A stretch of 63,743 nt of DNA, filler included, from Caldilineae bacterium (GTDB taxonomy: Bacteria > Chloroflexota > Anaerolineae > DTLA01): NCBI GenBank assembly GCA_037446815.1. It is 7 parts of 5 records of this genome, joined end to end, with 100 filler letters (N's around TTAATTAATTAA, not from the genome) between each part and the next. Parts side by side here need not be neighbours in the genome. Positions count along the whole stretch, not along the records: positions 2,723 to 10,362 come from JBBIHX010000002.1; positions 10,463 to 28,471 come from JBBIHX010000002.1; positions 28,572 to 40,229 come from JBBIHX010000003.1; positions 40,330 to 44,417 come from JBBIHX010000004.1; positions 44,518 to 61,068 come from JBBIHX010000004.1; positions 61,169 to 63,743 come from JBBIHX010000007.1; 1 more part is not named here. The stretch is one strand, 5' to 3'. Every line of letters starts with the position of its first letter. Position 1 is the first letter of the stretch. Positions 2,723 to 63,743 of this stretch are shown in pieces. A program made the position numbers and the translations under genes. The notes under the pieces are model-generated. The model was given only the letters and a program-made list of their open reading frames with translations. It did no database searches and was not told the DNA's origin.

Positions 2723-2795
2723 TGCTTCGCTTCGCTCGCAATGACACACGAAGAGAGTGTACATGCGGTTCACCAACACAGTTTGAAACCGAATC
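2723..2795 (-). mobile_element. MITE type A, partial at contig edge
   Basis: tgcttcgcttcgctcgcaatgac...ccaacacagtttgaaaccgaatc matches copies at 29065, 57937 and 60875. Confidence 0.8.
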
Positions 2796-2810
2796 ACGAG
2801 CATCACCCGC

Positions 2811-2839
2811 TTGACATCTCCGACGCCTCGGGCTACCAT
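2811..2839 (+). promoter_or_regulatory. sigma70 promoter TTGACA-N17-TACCAT
   Basis: Consensus boxes upstream of the CDS at 2924. Confidence 0.65.
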
Positions 2840-2923
2840 GCGCGCTGCAATGGCCCGATCGGAGCGCCCTCACACAATCTTTCCCCGCCGGCGCCCCGCC
2901 ACGCACACGCAGGGGAGGCGACC

Positions 2924-4258
2924 ATGGCAACCTCTAAACGGCACCGGCATGGCCCTCGTGCTACACGGCTGGCTTGGATCCTGGCAGCCCTACTCGTCTC
3001 CGCAGCGGCTCTGGCGCTGAGCATCCCCCCAACGCAAGCATGGACGCACTGGGAGCCCATCTCGTCATACAGCTGCCTCAACCCCGATATTGCGGCCGAC
3101 CCCTTCGGGGACGTTTATGCCGTCTGGGAGCGCGAGCGCGACGGCGAGATATTCCTTGCGCGTCGGCATGGCAGCGCATGGCTTTCGCCCGTCAACCTCA
3201 GCAACTCGCCCGCTGCCTCCAGAACACCCCGCATTGCCGCAGACTCGCGCGGATGGCTCCACGTCGTCTGGGCCGAAGGGAGCGAGGGACAGTCCGACAT
3301 CTACTACACCTGCTGGAACCGCTCGGCCTGGTCCGTGCCCCTCAACCTTTCCCGGTCCGCCGCGGAATCCCTAACCCCTGCCATTGCCGCGGACAGCGCG
3401 AACAGAATCCACGTCGCCTGGGTGGACAGGACCGGCACAAACCGCGACGTTTTCTACACTTCCGGAGACGGTGAGGGGTGGAATGCGCCGCTGAACCTGT
3501 CCAACACACCCGGACGCTCGGAGGAACCCGACATTGCCGTGGATGCCACCGGCAGGGTGTATGTGGCCTGGCAGGAGGGGATGCCCGCCGCGCCCGAGAT
3601 TCTGCTCCGCTCCCTGGCAGCCGCCGAATGGTCAGACGTTGTCAACGTTTCGCGCAACCCATCGGTCTCGCGGCATCCGGCCCTCGCAGGCGATCGCACC
3701 GGACGCATGGCGCTGCTCTGGGAAGACAACGCCACCGGCACATCGGAACTGCACGTATCTTTCGGGGACGGCGAGGGGTGGACGACGCCCGCCAACGTCG
3801 TAACTCTCCCCAGTGGGGCCAGCGCGCAGATAGACGCCCTTGTGGACGCAGACAATGTTCTGCACGTGTTGTGGGATGACCTCGTCGTGGATCAGTGGGA
3901 AATCTACTACATCCGCTGGAACGGAACGGCATGGTCCACGGTGCAAGACCTCTCGCACAACTGGGGCTACTCCTTCAAGCCCGCGCTTGCGCTGGATGCC
4001 CAGGGGATACTCCACGCCGTTTGGCAGGACTCGGAGCCATTCTTCCCATCGGATGGCATTGTCCACTGTTGGCAGGCTGCCGACGCCCCGCTGCCCGCGT
4101 ATCCATCCCCCACGCCCACCGCGTCGGCAACGGCCTCTGCCTCGCCTTCGCCTACCGCATCGCCAACGCCATCTCCGACCCCGTCGCCGACCCTGTCCCC
4201 AACCCCATCGCCGACCGCGCCCTACCGCCGATACCTGCCCATCATCCTGCGTTTCTAG
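2924..4258 (+). CDS. Secreted 7-repeat beta-propeller protein with Pro/Ser/Thr linker and C-terminal YLPIILR motif
   Basis: Signal peptide; seven PxIAxDxxGxxHVxW-like repeats; (SPTP)n tract; GGAGG RBS. Confidence 0.75.
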   Translation: MATSKRHRHGPRATRLAWILAALLVSAAALALSIPPTQAWTHWEPISSYSCLNPDIAADPFGDVYAVWERERDGEIFLARRHGSAWLSPVNLSNSPAASRTPRIAADSRGWLHVVWAEGSEGQSDIYYTCWNRSAWSVPLNLSRSAAESLTPAIAADSANRIHVAWVDRTGTNRDVFYTSGDGEGWNAPLNLSNTPGRSEEPDIAVDATGRVYVAWQEGMPAAPEILLRSLAAAEWSDVVNVSRNPSVSRHPALAGDRTGRMALLWEDNATGTSELHVSFGDGEGWTTPANVVTLPSGASAQIDALVDADNVLHVLWDDLVVDQWEIYYIRWNGTAWSTVQDLSHNWGYSFKPALALDAQGILHAVWQDSEPFFPSDGIVHCWQAADAPLPAYPSPTPTASATASASPSPTASPTPSPTPSPTLSPTPSPTAPYRRYLPIILRF

Positions 4259-4278
4259 GCGCCACAGGCGTGCGCACC

Positions 4279-6105
4279 CTATGGCGCAAGCCGCATCGCC
4301 TTCGCGAACGCGTCGGGGAACTCGGGCACGGTGGTCAACTCCAGGTACTCGGCGCGGCTGGCGATCGCCCGTGCCCGCTCCCGCTCGTCCAGCGACACAA
4401 GCGCAAGCCGAGCCCCCACCGCCGCCGCGTTCCCCACCTGCTGCACCTTGGCTGCGGGAACCGGCGGGAGAAGCCCGATCTCCAGGATGCTGTCCACGCT
4501 CAGGTAGGTGCCAAAGGCGCCGGCGAGAATCACCCTGTCCAAGTCCTGCACACCGATGCCCGCCTCAGCCATCAGCAGGTCTATGCCGGCGCGGATGGCT
4601 CCCTTCGCCAGTTGGATGGCGCTCACATCCCCGTGCGTGAGAACGATGGGCGTCCCGTAGCCTGATTCATCTGGCGTCGCCAGGATGAACTCCAGGCCAT
4701 GATTGCCTCTCATGACGCGCGGGTGATCCGTCAGCATTCGGCCTGATGGCGTGAGAACTCCTGCGCGGCGCAGCGCGGCCACCGCGTCCAGCACCCCCGA
4801 GCCGCATATCCCTATGGGCGGCGCATTATCCACCGTCTGCCAGTAGACGTAACTATCATCCACGCTCACCCACTCAATCGCCCCCGATGCCGCCCGCATC
4901 CCATGGCGAATGTGGGCGCCCTCAAAAGCCGGCCCCGATGCCGTGGAACAACTGATGAGCCGCGAAGGCGTCTTCAGCACCAGTTCCGTGTTCGTGCCGA
5001 TGTCCAGCCCCAGCACCACGCCCTCCATATCCGGAATGCGCGTCCCCAGGAGCATGGCTACATGGTCTGCCCCCACGAATCCCGCCACGTTGGGGAGCAA
5101 ATGCACATACGCGCCGGGCGCAATGGCCAGGCCGATGTCTCGCGCCTTGACATCCAGCGCGGCGCTCTCGGCAGGCACGTACGGAGCCATGCCCAGTTGC
5201 CCCACAGGAAGGCCGAGGAACAGATGATGCATGGCCGTGTTGCCCACCACGACGGTCTCCACGATTTCCTCAGGGGCGCGGCCCACTTTTTCGCACAGGC
5301 TGCGCGCCAGGCCGTAGATGGCCTGAACCGCGGCCGTCTGCAGTTCCAGCGCCTTCTCCTCGCCGCGCATGGCATAGCCGATGCGAGCCATGACATCATC
5401 ACCAAACGTGATTTGCGGATTCATCACCCCATCCGCCGCGAGCGAGCGCCCTGTCTCCAAATCCACCAGATGTGCGGCGATCTTGGTGGTGCCCAAGTCC
5501 ACGGCCAGTCCCAACGGCTTCCGGCCAGGCGCGCCCAGGGCGACAACCTCCGCCCGCCCTCCCGCGCGGCGCACGTAGGCAGTCCCCCGCCAATCTTGCG
5601 CACGCACCACCTCGGGCAAGGACTGCAGCACGGCGAAATCCACAGCCACATCTGCGATACCCTGCGCCTCGCTCACCGCATCGCGCAAGCGCACGGCATC
5701 GGCTCGCAGGTCTGTGAGCGTCGCGGGCGGCAATTCCACGGGACAGGCGATGACCGGCGGGTTCGGCACCACCTGAACGGCCTCGCCCTCCACCTGAAGT
5801 CGCTGCGTGGTGCTGAGCGAATCGGCCGGGACGTACACCTTCACACCGGCCTGAACGTGCACCTGGCACGCCAACCGCATCCCCTCAGCAACGGCATCGG
5901 CCCCCAGTTTCTGAATCTCGGTGGCCGACGGCGGCGACACTTCCCCCGCAAGCACGCGCACACGACAGCGCCCGCACGTCCCGGCCCCGCCGCATATGGC
6001 CACAAGTGCAACGCCCGCGCGCCGCGCCGCGTCCAGCAATGTCTCGCCCGCGACACACTCAGCGCGGCGACCCAGCGGCTCAAAATCAATCCAGCAAGTG
6101 CCCAT
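4279..6105 (-). CDS. ASKHA-type ATPase with N-terminal [2Fe-2S] domain (DUF4445; RACE/RACo reductive activator of corrinoid proteins)
   Basis: CGGAGTCGRC...RLAC ferredoxin; DLGTT, DIGTNTE, GPAFEG, GICGSG, LAGAFG motifs. Confidence 0.88.
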   Translation of the reverse strand: MGTCWIDFEPLGRRAECVAGETLLDAARRAGVALVAICGGAGTCGRCRVRVLAGEVSPPSATEIQKLGADAVAEGMRLACQVHVQAGVKVYVPADSLSTTQRLQVEGEAVQVVPNPPVIACPVELPPATLTDLRADAVRLRDAVSEAQGIADVAVDFAVLQSLPEVVRAQDWRGTAYVRRAGGRAEVVALGAPGRKPLGLAVDLGTTKIAAHLVDLETGRSLAADGVMNPQITFGDDVMARIGYAMRGEEKALELQTAAVQAIYGLARSLCEKVGRAPEEIVETVVVGNTAMHHLFLGLPVGQLGMAPYVPAESAALDVKARDIGLAIAPGAYVHLLPNVAGFVGADHVAMLLGTRIPDMEGVVLGLDIGTNTELVLKTPSRLISCSTASGPAFEGAHIRHGMRAASGAIEWVSVDDSYVYWQTVDNAPPIGICGSGVLDAVAALRRAGVLTPSGRMLTDHPRVMRGNHGLEFILATPDESGYGTPIVLTHGDVSAIQLAKGAIRAGIDLLMAEAGIGVQDLDRVILAGAFGTYLSVDSILEIGLLPPVPAAKVQQVGNAAAVGARLALVSLDERERARAIASRAEYLELTTVPEFPDAFAKAMRLAP

Positions 6106-6115
6106 GGCGCGCCCT

Positions 6116-6679
6116 CTATAGACCATTCCTGCGGCCCCGGGCCAAGCGGACAAGCCCCTGCGCGCCAAAAGCCAGTACTCCGCCGACGAGCGCCGTGCCC
6201 AATTGCGGCCAGCGCATCATGTTGACCATGGCCTGGGGAATGGCGACGGCCGCCACATTCCCGCCAACAGCCACGTGGAGCGGCCAAACGACCAGCGCCG
6301 TAACCGCCGCATAGAGCCAGGCGAATTTCACCACCGCCGCGGCGACAAGAGCCAGGATGCGACTCCGCTTCCGCAGCAGGGCGAACATCCCCACAAACGC
6401 CGCGTTGCCCACCGCGATGAACGGCATCATCACCCACAGGGGGAGAGGCAGGATACCCCGAAGGGCCGCGCCCACGGGCGTAATCATCCCGACCACCATC
6501 GCCTGCCCCAACCCGCACCATTCCAAGGTCAACAAGAGCAGCGCGTTCACCAGCGGGCCGGTAACGTATTGAGGTAGGCCCATGTTGGTAATCGCCAGCG
6601 CCGCGGCCAGCGCCAGGGTGAATTTCGCCGCTTCCGCCCAGACCGCGCTCCGATTCAGAGTTACAGACTTGGCTTCCAT
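6116..6679 (-). CDS. ECF transporter S-component-like membrane protein
   Basis: ~190 aa, ~5-6 TM, QYVTGPLVNA...PFIAVGN...WPQLGTALVGG pattern. Confidence 0.7.
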   Translation of the reverse strand: MEAKSVTLNRSAVWAEAAKFTLALAAALAITNMGLPQYVTGPLVNALLLLTLEWCGLGQAMVVGMITPVGAALRGILPLPLWVMMPFIAVGNAAFVGMFALLRKRSRILALVAAAVVKFAWLYAAVTALVVWPLHVAVGGNVAAVAIPQAMVNMMRWPQLGTALVGGVLAFGAQGLVRLARGRRNGL

Positions 6680-6698
6680 TGTGTTTACTCCCACCGCG

Positions 6699-7874
6699 CT
6701 AGATGCGCTCTAGTGTAACCGATTTGTTCCTTTGCTCCAACTGGCGGGCGAGTTCTTTTACATAGAGCATCCGCATGGACTCGCCCCGAATCACGTCGGC
6801 CACCTGGTTGGGATTTATGGCCGTGCCCACCAGAAAGTGAATCTCATCCGCCGAGAGAAGAATTCGCGCCAGGCGGCTCGCCGCGTCCTCACCTGGAGGC
6901 AGATCGTGAATGGTCTTGCATTGTTCCAGGAGGCTCACGGCCTGCCCCAGCGTCAGAATGCCCTCGGTAACCAAATCCACGCCTTCCAGCCGCGCGGTTG
7001 GTGGCGTGCCGCGCGCCCTGGAGGGAACGCCCCCGCGCTTGCTGGGCGGCACCCAATCCACCTTGAGTTCCTGGCCCAGCACCCGCGCCGCGATTTGCGC
7101 CGTCGTGCCACCGCAAATCACCTTGTAGCCCCGCGATGCCATCAGCCTGCGCGTCGCCTCCTCATCGTGCGCGCGATCCGCGGGAGGGCCTGTCCAGATG
7201 ATGGCCCGCACCGTGCGCCGCACCCGCATGGCAACTGCCGTGCTGTCGTCTCCGGGCTTGCCGTCATAGAGGCGCATAGCGGTGCTGGACAGCGCCCGCG
7301 CCAGACTGTGGGCATCGCCGCCCGTCTGTACCCAGCGCCGAACCGACACCGCGATGTTCTGCCAGCCCCAGCCCAGGCGGTACAGCCCGCCCACCCCCGC
7401 GTGCACATATCCGTCGCTGACCATCACCATGTAGTCGCCCTCTTGGAGCGAGAAATGCGCCTCGTGGATGCGCCGCCCTTCCACCTCTCGCTCCGCGCGC
7501 GGGATTCCCCAAATCTGCCCGCCGCGGATGAGGATCAGGGGCGGCGTGTCATATTCCACAAGATAGGCGTCGCGCCCGCGTTGCACAAGGAGCACGGCGA
7601 AGGTCGCATACGCCAGTTTCCGCACGCTGCACTCCGGCAACGTGGCAACCAGCGTGCTGATCACCTCCTCCACCGACGCGCCCCGCTGGAACATGGACGC
7701 GGCGATTTCGGCCGTGAGGGTGGCCATGATATTCGCCTTCACGCCGCTGCCGAGCCCATCCGAAAGCACAACGATGAAGGACTGCGGCGTCGTGGCCACG
7801 CGCACGCAATCCCCGCAGAGTTCCTCGCCGTGCTTCGCCAGGCTCTCCCAGGCGATTTCAATGAAGAGCCTCAT
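6699..7874 (-). CDS. SpoIIE/PP2C-like Ser/Thr phosphatase (HfsC-like)
   Basis: EELCGD, LSDGLGSGVKA, MVSDG, PGDDST motifs. Confidence 0.85.
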   Translation of the reverse strand: MRLFIEIAWESLAKHGEELCGDCVRVATTPQSFIVVLSDGLGSGVKANIMATLTAEIAASMFQRGASVEEVISTLVATLPECSVRKLAYATFAVLLVQRGRDAYLVEYDTPPLILIRGGQIWGIPRAEREVEGRRIHEAHFSLQEGDYMVMVSDGYVHAGVGGLYRLGWGWQNIAVSVRRWVQTGGDAHSLARALSSTAMRLYDGKPGDDSTAVAMRVRRTVRAIIWTGPPADRAHDEEATRRLMASRGYKVICGGTTAQIAARVLGQELKVDWVPPSKRGGVPSRARGTPPTARLEGVDLVTEGILTLGQAVSLLEQCKTIHDLPPGEDAASRLARILLSADEIHFLVGTAINPNQVADVIRGESMRMLYVKELARQLEQRNKSVTLERI

Positions 7875-9592
7875 GGCTCCTGCCCTTCCTCCTCCAGCAA
7901 CTTGGCGAGCCGCGACAGCATAATCTTCGTATCCGCCGTTGTCTCGCCCAGAAGTTGCGCGATCTCGTGGGCCACGCGCATCTGCTTGATGACCACTTCC
8001 TGAGTACGTTGGAGCGTCTCCTCGCGGATGCGATCCAACTGTGCGCGCTGCTGCTCGCGTTCGGTAACATCCCGCAGGATGCCCACGATAAGGTTCTGGT
8101 CCTTCACGGCGACGATGGTCTGCTCCACGACAAGGCCATTGAGGGCCAGGCGCTGGCGGATGATGGGGTGGCCGGTTCGGCGCACCGACTCAAACCCCTG
8201 CAACACCACCGGCGGGGCGGCCTCGTCCAGCGGGTGGCCGATGACCTGCGGGAGCGAGCAACGGAGCATCGCCTCCGCCGAGGGCGACATGTCCTGGATG
8301 TGAAGCCGCGTATCCACCGTGATCACCGGGTCCTGTGTTACGGCCATGATCACCTGGCGCAGCGATTCGGCCCGCTTGCGCGTGTACGGGATGCACATCG
8401 TCGCCTCTGCAAGCCCGCGCAGGGTGGCGATGGCCTTGTCGCGGCAGGTAGGATAGCCGCACGCGCCGCAGTTCAGTTCATCCTCGGGCGCATACTTGTC
8501 CACGCGGTGGAGTACCTCGCGAATCTGCTCTTCGGTAAACTCCGGCATCGGCACGCTCTTGTCCCGGTAGGCGCGTGCCAGCGACGGCCACTCCTCGCGG
8601 GAAGGGAGCGGTTGGGGCTGACGCCGCGCCGCATACTCCAGCACCCTCTGTCGCGCCTGGTACACGCCGATGTCCTTGCCCATCCCGGGGCCGTTGATGC
8701 ATCCGCCCTCGCACGCCATGAGTTCCACCAGCGACGCCCGCAGGGTTCCCGCCCGAATGCTCTGGAGCACGTCTTCACAGGCGGCCAACCCCGACGTCGT
8801 TACGATTTCGCTCGCAAGAATGTCGGTATTCAGATTCGCCGTGCCCACCAGGCCTCCCTCCACGGGAAACACGCGGGCATTGGCGCGTGGAACCTCCTCG
8901 TGCTCATCGGGCGGCGCAGGCAAAGACACGCCGCTGGCCCCGAGCCATTCCGACAGTTCCTCATAGGTCAGTGCCGCGTCCATCACGTCCTGGACTGCCT
9001 CGTCGTGAATCTCACCCTTCTTGGCGAAACACGGGCCGATGAAGACCAGGCAGGCCTCCGCCCCGTACCGTTCGCGAAGCCAGCGCCCGTGGGCGATCAT
9101 CGGCGAAACCACAGGCGCGAGATGCGGAATCAGGTCCGGATAGTATATCTCAATCAGATTCACCACCACCGGGCACGAAGACGTGATGACCGGATGCCGA
9201 TCGGGCATAGCCTCCACCACTTCCCGGTGGGCCTGCCCCACCATCTCCGCCCCGAAGGCCGTCTCATGCGCCGCGGAGAAACCCAGCGCCTGCAGCGCCT
9301 GCTCCATCTGCACGAAGGACTGGATGCCAAAGTAAGCCGGGGCCGACGGCGCGACACTGGCGACTACCGTTCGGCCCGACGCCATGGCCTCTCGTACCAG
9401 GGCGCGATCGTCGCGCACGCTCTTAGCCCCCTGGGGGCACGCGCGCACGCACGACCCGCACACAATGCACAACTCCGGCACCACCTGCGCCTGTCCGCCC
9501 TGCACCCGCACCGCCTTCACCGGGCATGTGCGCACGCACCGATAGCAGTCGCGACAGCGCGCGACATTCGTACTCACCACAGAGTGGGTCAT
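7871..9592 (-). CDS. Sensory group C [FeFe]-hydrogenase with PAS domain (HydS/HfsB-like)
   Basis: N-terminal 2x[4Fe-4S]; H-cluster motifs TSSCP, GPCFAKKGE, ELMACEGGCING; CGACGYPTC FeS domain; C-terminal PAS and coiled coil. Confidence 0.88.
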   Translation of the reverse strand: MTHSVVSTNVARCRDCYRCVRTCPVKAVRVQGGQAQVVPELCIVCGSCVRACPQGAKSVRDDRALVREAMASGRTVVASVAPSAPAYFGIQSFVQMEQALQALGFSAAHETAFGAEMVGQAHREVVEAMPDRHPVITSSCPVVVNLIEIYYPDLIPHLAPVVSPMIAHGRWLRERYGAEACLVFIGPCFAKKGEIHDEAVQDVMDAALTYEELSEWLGASGVSLPAPPDEHEEVPRANARVFPVEGGLVGTANLNTDILASEIVTTSGLAACEDVLQSIRAGTLRASLVELMACEGGCINGPGMGKDIGVYQARQRVLEYAARRQPQPLPSREEWPSLARAYRDKSVPMPEFTEEQIREVLHRVDKYAPEDELNCGACGYPTCRDKAIATLRGLAEATMCIPYTRKRAESLRQVIMAVTQDPVITVDTRLHIQDMSPSAEAMLRCSLPQVIGHPLDEAAPPVVLQGFESVRRTGHPIIRQRLALNGLVVEQTIVAVKDQNLIVGILRDVTEREQQRAQLDRIREETLQRTQEVVIKQMRVAHEIAQLLGETTADTKIMLSRLAKLLEEEGQEP

Positions 9593-9852
9593 GCCTGCTC
9601 CTCGCCGCGCAGCCGAGGCAGAATCTCGTTCTCAAAGAATGACTCGGCTGACAAGAAATGAATCTCGCGGTACTGTTGATCCTCAACCTTCACAGAAATG
9701 CCTTTGGAGCACTGCTCCATGCAGAACGCGCCCACAAGGCGCACCTTATCGCTCAGACCTCGCTTCTCCAGGATGCGTTCCAGGTCGGCGGCGAACTCAT
9801 CCGAGCCGCGCACGCTACAGGAACTACCGACGCAAATGGTAACGGTAATCAT
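9589..9852 (-). CDS. Thioredoxin-like [2Fe-2S] ferredoxin (HfsA-like)
   Basis: CVGSSC...FCMEQC; overlaps hydS start. Confidence 0.85.
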   Translation of the reverse strand: MITVTICVGSSCSVRGSDEFAADLERILEKRGLSDKVRLVGAFCMEQCSKGISVKVEDQQYREIHFLSAESFFENEILPRLRGEEQA

Positions 9853-11481: not shown

Positions 11482-11500
11482 GCGCGCCGTCGTCACAGAC

Positions 11501-27526: not shown

Positions 27527-27679
27527 GGTTCGGTTCCATCCTGCGTTGGTCTGTCCACGCGCCGCCCCTCCAATCCCCTGTCATGCTGAGCCGAAGGCGA
27601 AGCATCTCGGCCAGCGGGACTCTTCGCGCCATCGCCGATCAGAACGATAGCGGGCGCCAGCGGACTTTAGAACCGAATC
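27527..27679 (+). mobile_element. MITE type B (degenerate)
   Basis: ggttcggttccatc...gtcatgctgagccgaaggcgaagcatct...ctttagaaccgaatc. Confidence 0.75.
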
Positions 27680-27694: not shown

Positions 27695-27724
27695 TTGACC
27701 GCCCGTCGCAAGGCGTGGTATAAT
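27695..27724 (+). promoter_or_regulatory. sigma70 promoter TTGACC-N18-TATAAT (extended -10)
   Basis: Upstream of the TA pair; 15 nt after the MITE end. Confidence 0.65.
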
Positions 27725-27807: not shown

Positions 27808-28089
<282 letters not shown>

Positions 28090-28097
28090 AAAACGCG

Positions 28098-28451
28098 ATG
28101 GATTTCAAGATTGACGAGAATCTTCCAGTTGAGACAGCCGACTTGCTGCGCCAGGTTGGCTATGATGCCATCACCGTAGTTGAGCAGCACCTGGAAGGCG
28201 CCTCTGATTCCGATGTCATTCCTGCATGCCAAGAGGAGGGGCGTGCTCTGATCACCCTGGACACGGATTTCGCTGATATTCTCGCATATCCACCTGCGCA
28301 ATTCCCTGGCTTGATAGTCCTGCGTTTGCGCAGCCAGGATAAACCCCACATTCTTGAGGTTCTCGCGCGTCTGACACCACTGCTTTCCAGTGAACCGCTC
28401 GAGCACCGTCTGTGGATTGTTGAGGAGACCCGTGTAAGGATTAGAGACTAG
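28098..28451 (+). CDS. DUF5615 PIN-like toxin (VapC45-type)
   Basis: FKIDENLP...D..V..LITLDTDF; follows DUF433. Confidence 0.88.
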   Translation: MDFKIDENLPVETADLLRQVGYDAITVVEQHLEGASDSDVIPACQEEGRALITLDTDFADILAYPPAQFPGLIVLRLRSQDKPHILEVLARLTPLLSSEPLEHRLWIVEETRVRIRD

Positions 28452-28571: not shown

Positions 28572-29222
28572 CGCCCGTACTACGGCGGCATTGCCCCGAC
28601 TTCGCCAAGCGCGCCCCCCATCTGTCATGGCGAGCGAAGCGATGCAATCTCGCGGGGCGGTAACCGCAAGTAACGCGAATCCACACGAATAGGTTGGAGT
28701 GAGGGTCGTGCTCCCTCGCCCGCCGGGAGAGGGCTGGGATGAGGGGCTACGTGCGACGCGCCTCCGAATTGCATCGCGCGTAGTCTCATCTCCCGCGCCG
28801 CGCACGATGGCACGGGACGCCAACGTGCTCTGAAACCCAATCGGCGGCGGGACTCGGTTCCATCTTGTGTTGGGCTGTCCCGCGCACCGCTTCCCGGCCC
28901 TGTCATGTTGAGCCGAAGGCGATACGCCCTCGCCCGCCGGGAGAGGGCTGGGGTGAGGGGCTACGTGCGACGCACCTCCGAGGTGCGTCGCACGTGGTCT
29001 CATTTCCCGCGCCGCGCACGATGACAGGAGACGCCAGCGTGCTCTGAAACCGAATCGGCGGCGGGATTCGGTTCCAAAGTCTGTTGGTAGCCGTCATTGC
29101 GAGGGCACGCAGTGCCCGAAGCAATCTCCGGGGCGTGGGATTGCTTCGCTTCGCTCGCAATGACACACGGGCAGAGTGTGCCTGCGGTTCACCAACACAA
29201 CATGAAACCGAATCGGCGGCGG
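28572..29222. mobile_element. Tandem MITE array: partial unit to 28842, unit 28851-29056, unit 29065-29214, each followed by GGCGGCGG
   Basis: Shared TIRs; identical 8-mer at 28843, 29057 and 29215. Confidence 0.82.
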
Positions 29223-29229: not shown

Positions 29230-29258
29230 TTGCGCAATCTGGATGGCCGTGCTATAAT
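29230..29258 (+). promoter_or_regulatory. nusA operon promoter TTGCGC-N17-TATAAT (extended -10)
   Basis: Boxes read directly. Confidence 0.7.
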
Positions 29259-45737: not shown

Positions 45738-45767
45738 AGTTTACCACAAGGGCCGCCCAGGAGACAA
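45738..45767 (-). promoter_or_regulatory. sigma70 promoter TTGTCT-N18-TAAACT (extended -10) for pgi
   Basis: agacaa 45762-45767 and agttta 45738-45743 on +. Confidence 0.5.
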
Positions 45768-45782: not shown

Positions 45783-45922
45783 GACACGGTTCCATCTTGT
45801 GTTGGTCTGTCCCTCGCACCGCCTCTCCACTCTGTCATGCTGAGCCGAAGGCGAAGCATCTCGGTCAGCGAGATTCTTCGCTCTCCGCCGCTCAGAATGA
45901 CGGTAGGTGCCAAGAGACTTTG
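45783..45922 (+). mobile_element. MITE type B, right end eroded
   Basis: gacacggttccatcttgtgttgg...gtcatgctgagccgaaggcgaagcatct...ctcagaatgac...ccaagagacttt. Confidence 0.8.
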
Positions 45923-46000
45923 TTGGTCTGTCGCGACGAGGGCAAACTGTGATATAATGAGTTGCCGCGATGTCGCGAGCACACGCCAAAGGAGAGGCCG

Positions 46001-55882: not shown

Positions 55883-55896
55883 GCCTCAACTCCCGC

Positions 55897-56922
55897 CTAG
55901 GATTCCAGTGGCTCGGGGCTGACCAGCACGTTGTGGATGGTTGTGCGAATGGCCCCAAACCGGAACTTGTATTCCTCATCGCCACGCAGGAAGTCAAACT
56001 GGCGCCTGCCTGTCTCAATAGCGTGGCGAATGCAGTAGGACAGCAGGACGATTCCGGGGCTCAATGCGGCGTATTGCTCCGGATCGTAGCCGGAGTTGTA
56101 GACCAGGATGGCGTTGTCGTAGTCAAAGTTCAGCATGGTTGCGGCCGCTGTCCCGTTCACGTGTATGAACGCCAGGTTAAGCCATCCGTGTTGGAAGAAC
56201 GCGCGGCAAATATCCCGGAAGAAGCCCACCATCTTCTCGTCCATGAAGGCATCCTTCTCGGGGTTGCTCTTGCGATGGAGGCGGATGAAGTCGTCAATGT
56301 CGCGATCTAGCATTGCAGGGTCATCGGCGATGCGCCAGTGTGTTTCGGCGCTGGATTCTATGCGGCGCAGTTTCCGGCGGATTTCGTGCCGCTGCTTCTT
56401 GTCCAGGCTGTTCAGGTACTCGTCCCATGTGGCAGGCAGCGGGATGACCGGGCAGACCTCTTGCACACTGGTGTGGGCATACAGGCCCCGCTGCTGGGCC
56501 AGGCGCGTGATGCTTTCGTGGGTTGGGGATGCCTGCCGGATGTTACACAGGTCAACATAATGCCAGGAAGGTGCGTCGGCAGCGGTAAGGTAGTCTAGGA
56601 CGGCCGAGTACAGCGCATTCTCGTACCCGGGCGCAGCAATGACATCTAAATAGTCGGAGACGTCCACGCAGCCAACCCAGCGGAAGGTGTGGCGGCCTGC
56701 CGGGCTGATCACGCGGCACAGGGGGGCGATGCCCACGAGCGTGCCGTCATCCTTGCGCAGAACGACAAGGTGCAGTTCACCCTCGCCGAGATGCCTCCAC
56801 CACGTGGCTTGCCACTCCCACGTCAGGAAAATGGTGCGGAGAGGGCTGCGCGCCAGGAGGTCATTCCATTCAGGCTGCAATTGCCCAAAACTGTTTGGTT
56901 GGGACAAGATTTGGGTATTCAT
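55897..56922 (-). CDS. GNAT family (CelD/BcsL-like) acetyltransferase
   Basis: FLTWEW, GIAPL, SDYLD, YNSGYD..LSPG, FDFLRGDEEYK. Confidence 0.85.
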   Translation of the reverse strand: MNTQILSQPNSFGQLQPEWNDLLARSPLRTIFLTWEWQATWWRHLGEGELHLVVLRKDDGTLVGIAPLCRVISPAGRHTFRWVGCVDVSDYLDVIAAPGYENALYSAVLDYLTAADAPSWHYVDLCNIRQASPTHESITRLAQQRGLYAHTSVQEVCPVIPLPATWDEYLNSLDKKQRHEIRRKLRRIESSAETHWRIADDPAMLDRDIDDFIRLHRKSNPEKDAFMDEKMVGFFRDICRAFFQHGWLNLAFIHVNGTAAATMLNFDYDNAILVYNSGYDPEQYAALSPGIVLLSYCIRHAIETGRRQFDFLRGDEEYKFRFGAIRTTIHNVLVSPEPLES

Positions 56923-56967
56923 ATAGGCGGGCCAAGTCTATTTGTGATTGTGTACAGGGCAAGCCCC

Positions 56968-56997
56968 ATTGTACCACCGAGTGCGCCGTCATAACAA
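56968..56997 (-). promoter_or_regulatory. sigma70 promoter TTGTTA-N18-TACAAT (extended -10)
   Basis: taacaa 56992-56997 and attgta 56968-56973 on +. Confidence 0.55.
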
Positions 56998-57012
56998 AAG
57001 GGCGGGCCGGCG

Positions 57013-58094
57013 GAGTCGGCTTCATCTTGTGTTGGTGAAACGCATGGGCACTCTCCTCGTGTGTCGTTGCGAGCGAAGCGAAGCAACCTCACGCCCCAGA
57101 GATTGCTTCGGGCGCTCCGCGCCCTCGCAATGACAAATACCAACAGACTTTGGAACCGAATCCGATGGCGTGCGTCGGAGTTTGTTGTGCGCGCACGCTT
57201 TGCCCTGTGTCGGTGGGCCACGCCACACCCTCCTCGTGCGTTCGCGCGATCGTGGTGAATCCATCTCGTGGGGCGATAACCGCGAACAACGCGGGTTGCT
57301 CGGATAGGCGCGCGAGATTCTGAGCCGCGAAGCGGCGAAGGATGACAGGACAACGGGCCACCACGCACTGGGAGAGGGCCTGGAAGGGGGAGATCGCTGC
57401 GGGCGCGGTGGGCTATCGCAATGAGGGCAACCAACAGGCCCCGGAACCGAATCGCGGAGAGGACTCGGTTCCATCTTGTGTTGGTCTGCCCCGCGCACCG
57501 CCTCTCCGCTCTGTCATGCTGAGCCGAAGGCGAAGCATCTCGGTCAGCGAGATTCTTCGCGGCTTCGCCGCTCAGAATGACGGTGGATGCCAACAGACTT
57601 TGGAACCGACTCGCGAGGGGATTCGGTTGCAAACTGTGTTGGTCTGTCCCGCGCGCCGCCTCCCCACTCTGTCATGCTGAGCCGAAGGCGAAGCATCTCG
57701 GTCAGCGAGATTCTTCGCGGCTTCGCCGCTCAGAATGACGGTGGATGCCAACAGACTTTGGAACCGACTCGCGAGGGGATTCGGTTGCAAACTGTGTTGG
57801 TCTGTCCCGCGCGCCGCCTCCCCACTCTGTCATGCTGAGCCGAAGGCGAAGCATCTCGGTCAGCGAGATTCTTCGCGGCTTCGCCGCTCAGAATGACGGT
57901 ACATGCCAACAGACTTTGGAACCGACTCGCGAGAGGGATTCGGTTCCAAAGTCTGTTGGTATTTGTCATTGCGAGGGCGCGGAGCGCCCGAAGCAATCTC
58001 TGGGGCGTGAGGTTGCTTCGCTTCGCTCGCAACGACACACGAGGAGAGTGTCCATGCGTTTCACCAACACGAGATGAAACCGACTCGCGAGAGG
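57013..58094. mobile_element. Six-unit MITE array: A(+) 57013-57162, mosaic ~57171-57453, B x3 (57462-57612, 57620-57770, 57778-57928), A(-) 57937-58086
   Basis: Shared TIRs; 158-bp tandem period; GCGAGAGG duplicated at 57929 and 58087. Confidence 0.88.
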
Positions 58095-58101
58095 GGAGAA
58101 T

Positions 58102-58130
58102 TTGCTACGGAGCGAGATGTGTGGTATCCT
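58102..58130 (+). promoter_or_regulatory. glnA promoter TTGCTA-N17-TATCCT (extended -10)
   Basis: Boxes read directly; 15 nt after the MITE end. Confidence 0.6.
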
Positions 58131-58135
58131 ATACT

Positions 58136-58207
58136 CCCATGAACGAGCCGAGAAACGTTCATGGGCGACGTGGCCCGCAACCCCTGGGTTGGCGGGTCTT
58201 TTGTTTT
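58136..58207 (+). promoter_or_regulatory. glnA 5' leader with terminator and competing hairpin
   Basis: cccatgaacg/cgttcatggg stem; gggc-gacgtg-gccc; ggcccgcaacc/ggttggcgggtc followed by ttttgtttt. Confidence 0.6.
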
Positions 58208-58249
58208 GTGTGAGGCTTCGCATTTCACATCCTGAAGGAGGTAGGGGAC

Positions 58250-59614
58250 ATGGCAAGCGATGCGATCCACAATTGGAAACGACTTACCCGGGAAGAGGTG
58301 CTCCAGCAGGTGGAACAGGTGCGCGTGCGGTTCGTGCATTTGCAGTTTACCGACGTGGTTGGCATAGTCAAGGGCGTTACCCTGCCGGTGGACCAGTTGG
58401 AGGGCGCCATGACCCATGGCGTCTGGTTTGACGGGTCGTCCATTGCGGGATTCGCCCGCATTGCCGAGAGCGACATGTACCTGGTGCCCGACCCGTCCAC
58501 GTTCGCGCTGGTGCCGTGGGAGAGCGGCGATGATGTGCGAACGGCGCGTCTCCTCTGCGACGTGTACACGCCGCACGGCGAGCCTTTTGCAGGGGACCCG
58601 CGACAGGTGCTCCGCCGCATGATGGGTAAGGCCGCCGAGATGGGATTCCTGTACAACACGGGCCCGGAATTGGAATTCTTCCTCTTCCGCCGGGACCAGA
58701 ACGGCTATGGCACCCCCTTGCTCCACGACCAGGGAGGTTATTTTGACCAGTCCACAGACAGGGCCGTGGAGGTCCGCAAGTTCATGGTCAACGCGCTGAA
58801 GGCCTTCGGCATTCGCGTAGAGGCGAGCCACCACGAGGTTGCGCCTGGGCAGCATGAGATTGACTTTGAGTACGCCGACGCGCTTCACGCGGCCGACAAC
58901 GCGGTAACGTTCAAGTACGCGCTGAAGGCGGTGGCGAGCGCATTTGGTCTGCATGCGACGTTTATGCCGAAACCTGTGGGGGGCATCAACGGCTCCGGAA
59001 TGCACGTGCATCAGAGCCTGGTGTACCTGGATTCGGGCAAGAATGCCTTCGCCGATCCCAGCGATCGCTATGGGCTGTCGGCTGTGGCTCGTCATTTCAT
59101 CGCCGGGCAGATGGCGCACGCCCGGGGGATGAGCGCGGTGCTGTCACCGCTGGTGAACTCGTACAAGCGGCTGGTGCCGGGGTATGAGGCCCCCGTCTAC
59201 ATCAGTTGGGCACGGATCAACCGCTCGGCTTTGCTGCGGGTGCCCCAGGTAAGCCCGGCGAAGGTGGAGCACACGCGCGTGGAGTTGCGGTGCCCAGACC
59301 CGTCGTGCAACCCCTACCTGGCGTTTGCCGTGATGCTGGCGGCAGGACTGGATGGGATTCGGCGCAAGTTGGAGCCGCCCGATCCCGCCGAGGAGGACTT
59401 GTACCATCTGCCTGCGGAGAAGCGGCAGAAGCACAAGACGCTGCCCGGCTCGCTGTGGGAAGCGTTGCAGGAATTGCAGCGCGACGAGGTCATCAAGGAA
59501 GCGCTAGGGTCCCATGCCTACGAGCGATTTGTGGAGGCCAAGACGCAGGAGTGGGATGAGTACCGAACCTGCGTGCACCAGTGGGAATTGGATCGCTACC
59601 TGAATATCTACTAG
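58250..59614 (+). CDS. glnA: Glutamine synthetase type I (alpha-like)
   Basis: FDGSSIAG, GPELEFF, HHEVAPGQHE, NGSGMH, NSYKRLVPGYEAP, NRSA, ELRCPD. Confidence 0.96.
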   Translation: MASDAIHNWKRLTREEVLQQVEQVRVRFVHLQFTDVVGIVKGVTLPVDQLEGAMTHGVWFDGSSIAGFARIAESDMYLVPDPSTFALVPWESGDDVRTARLLCDVYTPHGEPFAGDPRQVLRRMMGKAAEMGFLYNTGPELEFFLFRRDQNGYGTPLLHDQGGYFDQSTDRAVEVRKFMVNALKAFGIRVEASHHEVAPGQHEIDFEYADALHAADNAVTFKYALKAVASAFGLHATFMPKPVGGINGSGMHVHQSLVYLDSGKNAFADPSDRYGLSAVARHFIAGQMAHARGMSAVLSPLVNSYKRLVPGYEAPVYISWARINRSALLRVPQVSPAKVEHTRVELRCPDPSCNPYLAFAVMLAAGLDGIRRKLEPPDPAEEDLYHLPAEKRQKHKTLPGSLWEALQELQRDEVIKEALGSHAYERFVEAKTQEWDEYRTCVHQWELDRYLNIY

Positions 59615-59775
59615 CGCTTTGCGTCGCGGGCATCGGCGCGGCAGGCGCTTGCCCGGTCGCGCCGCAGGCTTCTGTCCTCGGCGTGGGGCCGGTTTGACAG
59701 GCACCGGCGTTGCTGCTACGCTGCCGCCGAAGTTGCAGGAGAGCCGTGGGATGTGTCACGAAAGGAGGTGCAGCA

Positions 59776-60804
59776 GTGCAAGACAGGGGTTTCGCGCTGA
59801 TTCTCAAGGCCATTGACGTTTCGCTGGACGTGCGAAAACTGGGAGTCGCAGTGGTGGGGCTGGCGGCGACGCTGGGGGCAGCGGCATTTCTGTCCTTCCT
59901 GGGGAGCCGCACCGGGGATGCAGGGCTGGTGCTCTTTACCCTGCTGGCGGCACTTGCGATGTGGGTCGGGATATCCCTGGTGTACGGCGCGATTACTCGC
60001 TTGAGTTACCTTCACCTCACGCAGGGCAACCCGGGGTCGTGGCGGGATGCGCTCAGTTACGCGATGGGCCATCTGGCGAGCCTGATGTTTACAGGCCTGG
60101 TGCTCGCCCTCGCGGTGCTGGGGGTCTTCCTCGTGGAGATCATCGTGCTGCTGTTGGGGCGCATTCCGTACCTGGGGGAACTCATCGCTTCGGCGGCGTT
60201 TCTGCCGTTAACCATCCTCAACGCGTTTGTGCTCCTGGTGATCACCGTCGGGTCGTGGCTTATCTATCCTGCCATCGCGGCCGAGGGGACCGGCGTCGTC
60301 GGCACTATCCAGCGCGTCGTGGGGCTGGTGCGGCGGTCGCCCGGGCAGGTGGTGATGTACATCGCGATTGCCATCATTGCCGTCGGGTTCGCGTCGTGGA
60401 TCATCTTCGGGCTGGGCTATGGCGGGGCGGCCCTCACGGCAGTCGCCACGATGATCGGGGCAGGCTCGCGAATCGGACGGCTCTTTGACATCTGGCCGGG
60501 AATGGGCGGCTATATGATGCCGTATGGGATGGGCTGGACGCCGTACCGCGCTGCGAGCCTGCCCTTCACCATGTACCTTGCCCAACTGGTTTACGCGATT
60601 GGTATCGCGGGGCTGGTGGCGATTGTGGCCGCATTCCCGGTGGTGTTCCTCATGTCTGCGGCGACGGCCACGTATCTGAATGTGGCAGAGCGGAAGGCGT
60701 CGGGAATTGCGGGGGAAGGCGAGGCCCAGGCACACTGCCCGAAATGCGGAAGCGCAGTGCAGGCCGGGCAGAAGTTCTGCTCCAATTGTGGGGCGGCGCT
60801 ATAG
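59776..60804 (+). CDS. Multi-TM membrane protein with C-terminal zinc ribbon
   Basis: Hydrophobic helices; CPKCG...FCSNCG; AAGGAGG RBS. Confidence 0.75.
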   Translation: MQDRGFALILKAIDVSLDVRKLGVAVVGLAATLGAAAFLSFLGSRTGDAGLVLFTLLAALAMWVGISLVYGAITRLSYLHLTQGNPGSWRDALSYAMGHLASLMFTGLVLALAVLGVFLVEIIVLLLGRIPYLGELIASAAFLPLTILNAFVLLVITVGSWLIYPAIAAEGTGVVGTIQRVVGLVRRSPGQVVMYIAIAIIAVGFASWIIFGLGYGGAALTAVATMIGAGSRIGRLFDIWPGMGGYMMPYGMGWTPYRAASLPFTMYLAQLVYAIGIAGLVAIVAAFPVVFLMSAATATYLNVAERKASGIAGEGEAQAHCPKCGSAVQAGQKFCSNCGAAL

Positions 60805-60874
60805 GGGACCGTGTCGCCGGCCCGATGGGCGGCAGACTTGGTTGCGAGGGGTCGGGAACCGAGGCCGTTCGGTG

Positions 60875-61024
60875 CATTCGGTTCCATCTTATGTTGGTGA
60901 ACCGTGGGCGCACTCTCCTCGTGTGTCATTGCGAGCGAAGCGAAGCAATCCCACGCCCCGGAGATTGCTTCGGGCGCTCCGCGCCCTCGCAATGACAAAT
61001 ACCAACAGACTTTGGAACCGAGTC
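60875..61024 (+). mobile_element. MITE type A, complete, 150 bp
   Basis: TIRs; flanks gttcggtg (60867) / gttcggcg (61025) match 7/8. Confidence 0.88.
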
Positions 61025-61039
61025 GTTCGGCGGCTCAAT

Positions 61040-61068
61040 TTGACAGAAAGGGGCCTTCCCAATAGAAT
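61040..61068 (+). promoter_or_regulatory. sigma70 promoter TTGACA-N17-TAGAAT (downstream gene lost at contig end)
   Basis: Near-perfect consensus. Confidence 0.7.
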
Positions 61069-61239
61069 NNNNNNNNNNNNNNNNNNNNNNNNNNNNNNNN
61101 NNNNNNNNNNNNTTAATTAATTAANNNNNNNNNNNNNNNNNNNNNNNNNNNNNNNNNNNNNNNNNNNNGCAGATAAGTATACAGGAACGGTGCGCAGGCG
61201 CAAATGAGGGTGCGGGAGCGGCCTGGTTCCATTCGAAAT

Positions 61240-61522
61240 GCGAGATTCTTCGCGGCTTCGCCGCTCAGAATGACACGTGCACCGTCAATTTGAGGCGAAG
61301 GCGAAGCGTCTCTGGGTGCGAGATTCTTCGCGGCTTCGCCGCTCAGAATGACACGTGCACCGTCAATTTGAGGCGAAGGCGAAGCGTCTCTGGGTGCGAG
61401 ATTCTTCGCCCTTACGCCGCTCAGAATGACAGGTGCACAGTCATATTGAGGCGAAGGCGAAGCGCCTCTGGAGGGAGATTCTTCGCCCTCCGCTGCTCAG
61501 GATGGCAGGTGCGTTGTCATTG
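61240..61522. repeat. Tandem 78-bp palindromic repeats (~3.5 copies)
   Basis: cgagattcttcgc...ctcagaatgac recurs at 61241, 61319, 61397 and ~61474. Confidence 0.85.
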
Positions 61523-61533
61523 CGGGAGCGCGC

Positions 61534-62583
61534 TCAGCGGGTGATGTCCGCGATGGCACCCTTGAGGATGATGAGCGCCCGGTCAATATCCTCGGGCTCA
61601 ATTCCGTAGTGGGTAACCATGCGGAACTGGCCGCCCTCAATGGCCTGGAACTTCAGCCCTTCCTGAGCGCATCGAGCCACCAATTGCTGCGGCGTGAATC
61701 GGTCGGTGGCGAGGCCGAAGATGAGGATGTTGCTCTGCACGCGCTCCAGGCGGATGTCAAACACGCCCATCTCGGCGAGGCCCGCGGCCAGTCGCCGTGC
61801 ATTGGCGTGGTCGTCGGCGAGGCGATCCACCATCTGCTCCAGCGCCACGATGCCCGCCGCGGCAATGATGCCCGCCTGGCGCATCCCGCCGCCGAGGACT
61901 TTGCGCAGGCGCTTTGCTTCGTACACGAAGTCCCGGCTGCCGCAGACGAGGGAGCCAACCGGCGCGGATAGCCCCTTGGACAGGCAGAAACTGACGGTGT
62001 CAAACGGTTCGGCCAGCGTGCGGGCCTCCACGCCGAGCGCGACGGCGGCGTTGAAGATGCGGGCGCCGTCCAGGTGGGCGCTCAAGTTGTGCTTGCGCGC
62101 GACGGCGACGACGGCGTCCATCTGCGCGCGAGTGAGCACCGCGCCGCCGCATCGGTTGTGCGTGTTTTCAAGCACGACCAGACGGCTGCGCGGGAAGTGC
62201 ACGTTGTCGGGGCGCACGGCGGCTTCCACTTCGGCGGGGTCCACCGTGCCGTCGTCGCGGTTGCGCACGGTGCGGACGTGCACGCCGCCCAAGACCGACG
62301 GGCCGCCTGCCTCAAACAGGAAGGTGTGGGCTTTGTCGCCCATGATGACCTCGTCGCCGCGCCCACATTGGGCCAAGATGCAGATGAGGTTGCCCATGGT
62401 GCCGCTGGCGACGAACAGGGCGGCCTCCTTGCCCATGCGCTCGGCGGCCATCTCCTGCAGGCGGTTGACGGTGGGGTCTTCGCCCATGACGTCATCGCCT
62501 ACCTCGGCGCGGTACATGGCCTCGCGCATGGCTGGGGTGGGATGGGTTACCGTGTCGCTCCGTAGGTCTATGATGCGCTGCAT
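61534..62583 (-). CDS. ltaE: Low-specificity L-threonine aldolase
   Basis: DLRSDTVT, SGTMGN, ENTHN, HLDGARIFNA, CLSKGL. Confidence 0.95.
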   Translation of the reverse strand: MQRIIDLRSDTVTHPTPAMREAMYRAEVGDDVMGEDPTVNRLQEMAAERMGKEAALFVASGTMGNLICILAQCGRGDEVIMGDKAHTFLFEAGGPSVLGGVHVRTVRNRDDGTVDPAEVEAAVRPDNVHFPRSRLVVLENTHNRCGGAVLTRAQMDAVVAVARKHNLSAHLDGARIFNAAVALGVEARTLAEPFDTVSFCLSKGLSAPVGSLVCGSRDFVYEAKRLRKVLGGGMRQAGIIAAAGIVALEQMVDRLADDHANARRLAAGLAEMGVFDIRLERVQSNILIFGLATDRFTPQQLVARCAQEGLKFQAIEGGQFRMVTHYGIEPEDIDRALIILKGAIADITR

Positions 62584-62584
62584 A

Positions 62585-63397
62585 TCAGTACCTCCTTACG
62601 ATGCTGCGGTAGGCTTGGGGCTGTCGGCACTGCATAATCTGGAGTTCCTCGCGGGTGCGGCGGACATCGTCCAGGTTGATGCGGGCGATGCAATACCCCT
62701 CGGCCTCCTCGTCCATCATGGCGAGGACGTGGCCACGCGGCCCGAGGATGAGGCTCTCGCCGAAGAAGGCGTAGGTGTATTCTTCGCCCACGCGGTTGGC
62801 TGCCGCCAGGAAGGAGGCGTTCTCCATAGCCCGCGCGAGGGCGTAGGCCTTCCATTCCTCCTGATTGGGCTTCTCCCAGTTGGCCAACGCGATGAGGAGT
62901 TCCGCGCCGTCCAGCGCCAGCGAGCGGGCTACCTCTGGAAAGGCCAGGTCCCAGCCGAGCATGAGGCCAATGGCGCCGATGCCGGTCCCAAAGACGGGGA
63001 GCCGATACCCCGGGCGGAAGGCCAGCCGCTGTTCGCCTTTCGGGTGCAGGGCGCGGTAGTCGCCGAGAATCTCGCCGTCGGGGCCGATGAGGAGGGCGGC
63101 GTTGTATACGATGCTCTCCACCTTCTCCTTGACGACCATCCCGAAGGCGAGGTGCACTTCAAACTCCGAGGCGCGCTGGCTCATGAGGTTGGTGGTGGGG
63201 CCGGGGATGCGCTCGGCGAGTTCGGTGAAGCGGACGCCGCACTCGTACCCCGTGGTGCACAGTTCGGGGAACACGATGAGGTCCACGTCGTGCTCGCTGC
63301 GGATTTTCTCAATGAATTCCGTCATACGCACCAGGTTCTCGCCGACCTCGCCCAATTGGGGCGACATCTGCACACAGGCGACGGTGATTTCGCTCAT
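62585..63397 (-). CDS. Carbon-nitrogen hydrolase family protein lacking the catalytic Lys and Cys
   Basis: FPEL..TGY, YNAA, YRALHP, MLGWDLAFPE, ARAMEN, NRVG, FFGES. Confidence 0.85.
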   Translation of the reverse strand: MSEITVACVQMSPQLGEVGENLVRMTEFIEKIRSEHDVDLIVFPELCTTGYECGVRFTELAERIPGPTTNLMSQRASEFEVHLAFGMVVKEKVESIVYNAALLIGPDGEILGDYRALHPKGEQRLAFRPGYRLPVFGTGIGAIGLMLGWDLAFPEVARSLALDGAELLIALANWEKPNQEEWKAYALARAMENASFLAAANRVGEEYTYAFFGESLILGPRGHVLAMMDEEAEGYCIARINLDDVRRTREELQIMQCRQPQAYRSIVRRY

Positions 63398-63430
63398 GGT
63401 TGTCCTCCGTAGAAAAAATGTTCTAGGGCG

Positions 63431-63459
63431 ATTATACCTCTGGTATGGCGGCGCGTCAA
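63431..63459 (-). promoter_or_regulatory. sigma70 promoter TTGACG-N17-TATAAT
   Basis: cgtcaa 63454-63459 and attata 63431-63436 on +. Confidence 0.72.
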
Positions 63460-63474
63460 TATCCGCCGGATGCC

Positions 63475-63743
63475 GACGCGCTTTGATGCGTGTTTGCGAA
63501 CGGCGGCGAAGCGTCTCGGTTGGCGAGATTCTTCGCGGCTTCGCCGCTCAGAATGACAGGTGCGTTGTTGTGCTGAAGCGAAGGCGAAGCATCTCGGCTA
63601 GCGAGATTCCTCGCGGCTTCGCCGCTCAGAATGACAGGTGCGTTGTTGTGCTGAAGCGAAGGCGAAGCATCTCGGCTAGCGAGATTCCTCGCGGCTTCGC
63701 CGCTCAGAATGACAGGTGCGTTGTTGTGCTGAAGCGAAGGCGA
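63475..63743. repeat. Degenerate MITE end followed by tandem 78-bp palindromic repeats; runs off the window
   Basis: gacgcgctttgat resembles the TIR; gcgagatt recurs at 63523, 63601 and 63679. Confidence 0.8.

Follow-up and report, generated by a model that had tools for sequence, protein, structure and literature searches.

How does a family of small repeats come to end, at site after site, exactly 15 nucleotides (nt) upstream of a promoter? This question is raised by a 63,743-nt stretch of DNA (the window) from the Caldilineae bacterium assembly GCA_037446815.1, which consists of seven contigs of one metagenome-assembled genome (MAG), joined by six N44-TTAATTAATTAA-N44 linkers, and has a G+C content of 64%. 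Its repeats of about 150 base pairs (bp) are very probably miniature inverted-repeat transposable elements (MITEs), i.e., miniature non-autonomous transposons keeping only the terminal repeats of a 1.5-kb insertion sequence (IS), and it is most likely a Mutator-type transposase that inserts them 15 nt upstream of sigma-70-type -35 hexamers. An initial annotation, made from the DNA alone, had placed the host in the Chloroflexota, and the related records all belong to that phylum.

Element anatomy and the offset in the window

Allowing one mismatch, the motif GAYTCGGTTYCA is found 21 times in the window, where 0.81 matches are expected and 100 shuffles gave a maximum of 4. Terminal inverted repeats of about 24-26 bp, ending in ...GA(A/C/G)TC, give the elements the form GAYTCGGTTYCA ... 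TGTTGG, and the conserved end, comprised of 12 terminal bases and of TGTTGG at positions 17-22, is longer than the initial annotation had it. The window contains 13 element copies and one degenerate copy, with at least four body types: A (about 150 bp), B (about 151-153 bp), one C of 206 bp, and one longer D ending at 57453. All elements are small and non-coding, ranging from 138 to 330 bp in the window and the related genomes. The sequences flanking paired ends are direct 8-bp repeats, with at least 7/8 identity in 27 of 40 end pairs from the window and seven related genomes (chance 5.6e-4 per end pair), although one of the 40 is a false pair across a contig break and others are array members whose spacers measure 7 nt. 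Terminal inverted repeats, target-site duplication, small size, and no coding capacity are the properties of MITEs, and the earlier view of the elements as non-coding transposon derivatives is borne out by them.

A strict promoter-like pattern was defined as TTGNNN, a spacer of 16-18 nt, and TAnnnT with at least 4/6 matches to TATAAT. Both strands of the window together contain no more than 27 such sites, eight of which sit exactly 15 nt past an element end. Among nine intact free ends, i.e., those not abutting another copy, seven face a strict site at 15 nt (binomial P 7.5e-25); the remaining two, at 27527 and 60875, face away and belong to single insertions whose other end is the promoter-facing one. 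The degenerate end at 63475 likewise has a strict site at 15 nt. All eight pairs of element end and -35 box on which the initial annotation had relied are present in the sequence, each with a correctly spaced -10 box, and its assignment of nusA, glnA, and pgi as downstream genes is correct. The promoters are consensus matches, with sigma-70-type -35 and -10 boxes 16-18 nt apart, and at each of the seven sites where a downstream gene lies in the window (seven of eight) this gene is co-oriented. The 15 intervening bases and the hexamers differ at every site. Either element end can face the promoter; A-type copies do so with one end in four cases and with the other end in one. The elements and promoter sites are as follows.

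2723..2795, plus strand: right 73 nt of an A-type element, clipped by the contig start; its end faces the promoter
2811..2839, plus strand: TTGACA-17-TACCAT, 15 nt past end 2795; open reading frame (ORF) for a hypothetical secreted protein downstream
27527..27679, plus strand: B-type element, 153 bp; its left end points to the terminator hairpin behind the upstream FAD-binding gene
27695..27724, plus strand: TTGACC-18-TATAAT, 15 nt past end 27679; DUF433/DUF5615 gene pair downstream
28572..29214, plus strand: nusA array of three elements, a partial C-type (28572-28842), a C-type (28851-29056), and an A-type (29065-29214)
28843, 29057, and 29215: three occurrences of the 8-mer GGCGGCGG, between and after the copies of the nusA array
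29230..29258, plus strand: TTGCGC-17-TATAAT, 15 nt past end 29214; nusA downstream (29367); promoter conserved in the related genome G011
45783..45922, plus strand: B-type element with truncated right end; its left end faces the pgi promoter
45738..45767, minus strand: TTGTCT-18-TAAACT, 15 nt past end 45783; pgi downstream (start 45694, minus)
57013..58086, no strand given: glnA array of six elements between divergent promoters, an inverted A-type (57013-57162), a long D-type (to 57453), three B-types (57462-57612, 57620-57770, and 57778-57928), and an A-type (57937-58086)
56968..56997, minus strand: TTGTTA-18-TACAAT, 15 nt past end 57013; GNAT acetyltransferase gene downstream (56922, minus)
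58102..58130, plus strand: TTGCTA-17-TATCCT, 15 nt past end 58086; glnA downstream (58250); promoter and leader conserved in G011
60875..61024, minus strand: single A-type element; 8-bp duplication with 7/8 matching (60867-60874 / 61025-61032)
61040..61068, plus strand: TTGACA-17-TAGAAT, 15 nt past end 61024; the contig ends there
63475..63743, plus strand: degenerate terminal repeat (about 9 of its first 13 bases match), followed by an array of 78-bp hairpin modules running past the window end
63431..63459, minus strand: TTGACG-17-TATAAT, 15 nt past 63475; CN-hydrolase gene downstream (63397, minus)

Three of these elements or promoters are clipped by contig ends (2723, 28572, and 61068), as is expected because repeats break assemblies.

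Some further observations concern the surroundings of single copies. At the pgi-side element, the truncated right end (45909-45960) is joined to what appears to be the inner part of another left repeat, suggesting a deletion between two adjacent copies; the extended -10 box (TGTGATATAAT) of a divergent AAA-ATPase gene lies next after this junction. The DUF433/DUF5615 (PIN-like) gene pair (27862-28451), located behind a MITE-adjacent promoter, has a visibly lower G+C content and is missing from the corresponding syntenic location of G011; the pair may have been acquired separately, as a cassette of the toxin-antitoxin-like kind. A hairpin module of about 70 nt (TGTCAT...ATGACA type) forms the body of B-type MITEs (e.g., 57510-57585 and 45822-45904) and also builds 78-bp tandem arrays at 61239-61512 and 63505-63743. 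The window stretch with this module finds 96 matches in G011, often in tandem, and the module is a separate, abundant repeat family. Apart from the elements, paralogous gene segments between 14237 and 22654 recur at spacings of 1,523 and 4,572 bp with 70-83% identity and Cys-rich motifs; they look like duplicated genes for oxidoreductase subunits.

Pre-existing promoters, arrays, and a transposase-bearing partner

The closest relative found is the Chloroflexota MAG G011, whose GlnA, encoded on contig L183, is 92% identical to that of the window. Hexamers are conserved between both genomes at nusA, glnA, and tRNA-Glu. The promoter orthologous to the 61040 site drives tRNA-Glu(CTC) in G011 and is present there without an element; the G011 sequence resembles the window from about 10 nt ahead of the -35 box onward, and the likeness breaks off where the window element begins. 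This is the only empty site obtained of the kind that the initial annotation had anticipated in related MAGs, and its distal flank has diverged. At glnA of G011, the -35 and -10 boxes and the leader are kept, but a different MITE ends 16 nt upstream. A decayed end of the window's own MITE family is found at the equivalent place at nusA, so this insertion is older than the divergence of the two lineages. For pgi no clean empty site was found in G011, the upstream region being full of hairpin repeats, nor for the DUF433 site, where synteny is lost. The promoters pre-exist and are not carried by the element, as had been proposed initially, since the spacers vary and since promoters in G011 are empty or differently filled.

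Two side observations come from the same comparison. The conserved glnA leader (window 58131-58249 versus L183 2380-2500) contains a hairpin followed by a T-run and looks like an attenuator or terminator. Also, G011 harbors a second promoter-targeting family of MITEs, the one at glnA included, whose terminal repeats resemble those bounding an ISKra4-like IS in the related genome G004 (second-family loci: L183 2108-2334, L263 1278-1480, and L160 715-2172). The ISKra4-like IS of G004 scores 200.7 bits with model NF033572 (cut-off 205) and sits 17 nt from TTGACG-18-TAGAAT, and the motif of this second family is absent from the window.

Arrays such as those at nusA and glnA might be understood from the way in which the elements would integrate. 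The family transposase, supplied in trans, would bind the terminal repeats and, by means of an 8-bp staggered cut, place one element end 15 nt upstream of a sigma-70-type -35 hexamer, so that the duplicated 8 bp would span the bases from 15 to 8 ahead of this hexamer; either end can face the promoter. As the promoter would survive insertion, it could be struck again; a new copy would then land between the earlier copy and the promoter, re-duplicating the same 8 bp, and the outcome would be tandem arrays with identical spacers in which the youngest copy presumably lies closest to the promoter. At nusA, the 8-mer GGCGGCGG is found three times, between the copies and after the last one. Spacers of the glnA array are GCGAG(A)GG-like; the promoter-nearest spacer equals the flank sequence, the distal spacers are decayed, and the two outermost A copies, which abut the divergent promoters, are 98% alike. 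Identical spacers in tandem copies are what repeated hits on one promoter would leave, and the arrays fit serial insertion at one distance from a surviving promoter.

Neither a similarity search nor the initial annotation found a transposase in the window, and an Rfam search of the window yielded no family at gathering score. However, complete ISs bounded by the same terminal repeats exist in related genomes, as would be required of the autonomous partners of a MITE. In G004, a 1,548-bp IS (L142 46-1593) contains an ORF for 437 amino acids (aa); in G008 the IS is present five times (1,520-1,522 bp), with both its repeats and its 8-bp duplications perfect, G006 has three copies of 1,528 bp with the same repeats, and G001 has one frameshifted copy. 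Promoter-like boxes lie 15 nt from both ends of the IS in G004 (L142 1-60 and 1594-1640), namely TTGCCC/TATAAT and a weak TGGCAG/TACACT. A search with the transposase protein gave 13 loci, all of them in Chloroflexota MAGs. More than 1,600 relatives occur in a large protein set, mostly on contigs of about the size of an IS, and their annotation goes no further than "transposase" or "Transposase, Mutator family".

Judged by its sequence, the transposase is a DDE enzyme of the Mutator superfamily. It consists of about 430 aa with an N-terminal four-cysteine region and scores 34.8 bits with the Pfam model Transposase_mut (PF00872; cut-off 21 bits). Across 22 sequences, residues D180, D243, C264-x2-H267, and E363 do not vary, which gives a DDE spacing of D-63-D-120-E. 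Profiles of IS256 and ISH6 match 22/22 members (all weakly) and that of IS1249 matches 11/22; the scores fall far short of the curated cut-offs, with 39.6 versus 150 bits for IS256 (NF033543), so that membership in the IS256 family is not supported, and 38.2 versus 240 bits for ISH6. The initial annotation had expected a transposase bounded by the same repeats and of the UPF0236, ISLre2, or ISKra4 type. The former half of this expectation holds, whereas the type does not: the ISKra4 (NF033572) and ISLre2 models match 0/22 members (E<=0.01), UPF0236 gives no match, a genome search with NF033572 detected other loci only, and BLASTP finds no similarity between the ISKra4-like transposase of G004 and the family transposase (best E 1.9), the terminal repeats of the two differing as well.

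Offsets in related genomes and recognition of the promoter

Related genomes were found through the repeat motif and served in place of a whole-genome census of the host. A first, looser repeat pattern gave 80 loci, mostly chance matches in unrelated phyla, about 21 of which are family members by their terminal repeat. The window was pooled with G005, G002, and G004, yielding 43 free ends. TTG begins at position +16 in 16 of these and at +17 in three, and the remaining offsets between 1 and 40 have 0-2 each. A correctly spaced TAnnnT accompanies TTG(+16) at 15 of the 16 ends (P 2e-19). With a looser promoter score, 11/27 ends in G005 have a call at 15-16 nt, whereas only 287 of 19,948 random flanks have any promoter call within 0-40 nt, and these calls are evenly spread. 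The flank pattern that the initial annotation had predicted appears as a sharp peak among the pooled ends, and its claim of "exactly 15 nt" is valid for the lineage of the window.

Several results weigh against a general rule of this kind, or against parts of the explanation preferred here. The promoters are predictions from consensus matches only. The offset is not a constant of the family: it is 4-5 nt in G001 (10/29 ends), 5 nt in G008 (2/13 by score, more by eye), and 7 nt in G009 (3/10), and in G006 offsets are scattered from 7 to 29 nt. In G011, where 52 stretches covered all 53 motif hits, 10 of 52 motif hits passed the repeat filter and 0/10 showed strict TTG(+16) with TAnnnT; five of these ten ends have looser promoter calls, at 7, 12, 15, 16, and 17 nt, and the G011 copies are few and old. 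A metagenome scan with the A-type end returned 21 loci, mostly on IS-sized contigs of other sub-lineages, whose 18 usable flanks contained two promoter calls (14 and 5 nt). Within the window only 3/7 true pairs are at least 7/8 identical; several duplications are decayed, which indicates that several copies are old. The full-length copy in G004 has no matching 8-bp duplication, possibly as a result of recombination between two copies. Finally, the lack of a family transposase extends from the window to the assemblies of the MITE-rich relatives G011, G002, and G005, in which a profile search did not detect it. Since these three MAGs are not complete and contigs of IS size are often missed in binning, it is by inference that we propose trans-mobilization in this host. 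What marks the entire family is its proximity to promoters; the sharp offset of 15 nt is specific to the lineage of the window.

How, then, might such a distance come about? Immobile regulatory DNA of the host, e.g., activator sites, would sit at a fixed distance from the -35 box and would be palindromic as these repeats are, but it would not be flanked by 8-bp direct duplications or share its repeats with the boundaries of a transposase gene, and the presence or absence of copies differs between close relatives while copies break assemblies at contig ends; we attach next to no probability to it. Just as little is left for an element that carries or creates a mobile or hybrid promoter, with the fixed distance being part of the repeat. 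Some ISs do create hybrid promoters with an outward-directed -35 box, but the 15 nt and the hexamers change here from site to site, either end can face the promoter, and the empty (tRNA-Glu) and differently filled (glnA) orthologous sites in G011 contradict the idea. Very improbable, too, is essentially random insertion with selection keeping those copies that fell where they do no harm in front of promoters. Bacterial repeats are generally found in intergenic "safe havens", and the decay of old copies indicates that there was time for selection; nevertheless, selection cannot yield the single-base phasing at +16, repeated hits have re-duplicated the same 8-mer, and separate lineages each possess their own sharp offset.

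More serious is the proposal of an equally targeted MITE whose transposase reads the DNA itself, i.e., the TTG of the -35 box together with local shape or sequence, without polymerase or sigma factor, and we grant it a substantial chance, if one clearly below even. Nothing but TTG is invariant in the targeted hexamers, and C is frequent at flank positions 13 and 15 (23/43 each). In the 5-nt lineages G001 and G008, moreover, the TTG of the -35 box forms the last three bases of the duplicated 8-mer, which resembles a sequence-defined cut site. However, the TAnnnT that accompanies TTG at nearly all +16 sites lies 23-30 nt further from the element, and direct reading of TTG alone would not enrich the -10 box unless selection removed all other insertions. 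A correctly spaced -10 box goes with 15/16 TTGs at +16 as compared with about 27 of roughly 1,700 TTG positions in the window; this strong co-occurrence suggests that the whole promoter is recognized and not TTG alone, and it favors a promoter-bound protein as the landmark. Also at odds with direct reading is a near-identical end repeat that lies at 15 nt in the window (end 2795) and at 5 nt in G001, which suggests that it is the transposase protein that sets the distance. The mechanism that we prefer, at about even chances, is a transposase that would dock on RNA polymerase already sitting on the promoter, through sigma region 4 or the alpha C-terminal domain, by analogy with what was proposed for TnGBS. 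A complex prediction for the transposase and sigmaA region 4 of G004 scored 0.00 and is evidence neither way.

Relation to known promoter-directed elements

Promoter targeting as such is already known for TnGBS, ISLre2, and ISKra4 elements, and, as far as the available part of the source goes (PMC3942029), what is new here is the transposase lineage, the form of MITEs and arrays, and the lineage-specific offsets. The word MITE does not occur in PMC3942029. Our literature search retrieved no paper on promoter-targeting MITEs in Chloroflexota, with ISfinder and the repeat tables of PMC3942029 lying outside the comparison, and no paper on promoter specificity in IS256-like transposases.

To our knowledge, only two transposase lineages were previously known to target promoters. 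The present family might be a third independent Mutator-like lineage with promoter-aimed integration, placed on the IS256/ISH6 side, equipped with an N-terminal four-cysteine domain, and using sub-lineage offsets of about 5, 7, or 15 nt with the ruler in the protein, a possibility that we take seriously while rating it somewhat short of even. As the sub-lineages all use near-equal terminal repeats, the ruler would have to be the protein, and this speaks for docking on a partner bound to the promoter, such as sigma region 4 or the alpha C-terminal domain. If this were true, the extremes of the sharp offsets would lie one helical turn apart, MITE arrays would record serial hits on housekeeping promoters, and ISKra4-type MITEs hitting the same promoters would represent convergent targeting. 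Lineages with differing offsets would form a natural series for deciding whether the distance is measured from DNA or from promoter-bound polymerase, and might be a starting point for promoter-directed insertion tools. Transposons aimed just upstream of promoters spare genes and sit where upstream regulation can be rewired. On the practical side, the elements could serve as precise promoter markers in Anaerolineae and relatives, for which transcription data are almost nil, and they also account for many contig breaks in metagenome assemblies.

With p-MULT elements in general, the family has in common a Mutator-type DDE enzyme with C-x2-H (C/D-x2-H in the superfamily), 8-bp duplications (8-9 bp there), a repeat length within the superfamily range of 18-39 bp, and a terminal C. 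IS256, ISH6, and IS1249 (p-MULT 1 and 2) are the best profile matches and resemble it in DDE spacing, in the C-x2-H motif, and in 8-bp duplications. They differ in that scores remain far under the cut-offs and that promoter targeting is not reported for IS256 and ISH6 in the part of the source at hand, where IS256 is described as inserting randomly and ISH6 as using an AT-rich target, AANATNTT (PMC3942029, section 12).

TnGBS and ISLre2 (p-MULT 3), likewise of the Mutator superfamily, target sites 15-17 bp upstream of sigmaA -35 boxes with 8-9-bp duplications according to the available part of the paper (PMC3942029), and the authors proposed a contact with the transcription initiation complex (PMC3942029, Guerillot et al. 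2014). In contrast to the family described here, they are almost all confined to Firmicutes, possess a UPF0236-type transposase, and insert in one orientation, with the right repeat next to the promoter; the window family does not follow such an oriented insertion but uses both orientations, and it is made up of MITEs and small ISs rather than conjugative elements. For the ISKra4 group (p-MULT 4), the same part of the paper lists 13 elements with predicted promoters at 13-17 bp on either side (PMC3942029). Although the transposase of the window family is unrelated to theirs at the sequence level and the terminal repeats differ, ISKra4 elements also have nearly perfect repeats and 8-9-bp duplications, are present in Chloroflexi, and insert 13-17 bp upstream of -35 boxes on either side, a range into which the 15-16 nt observed in both orientations in the window and G005 fall.

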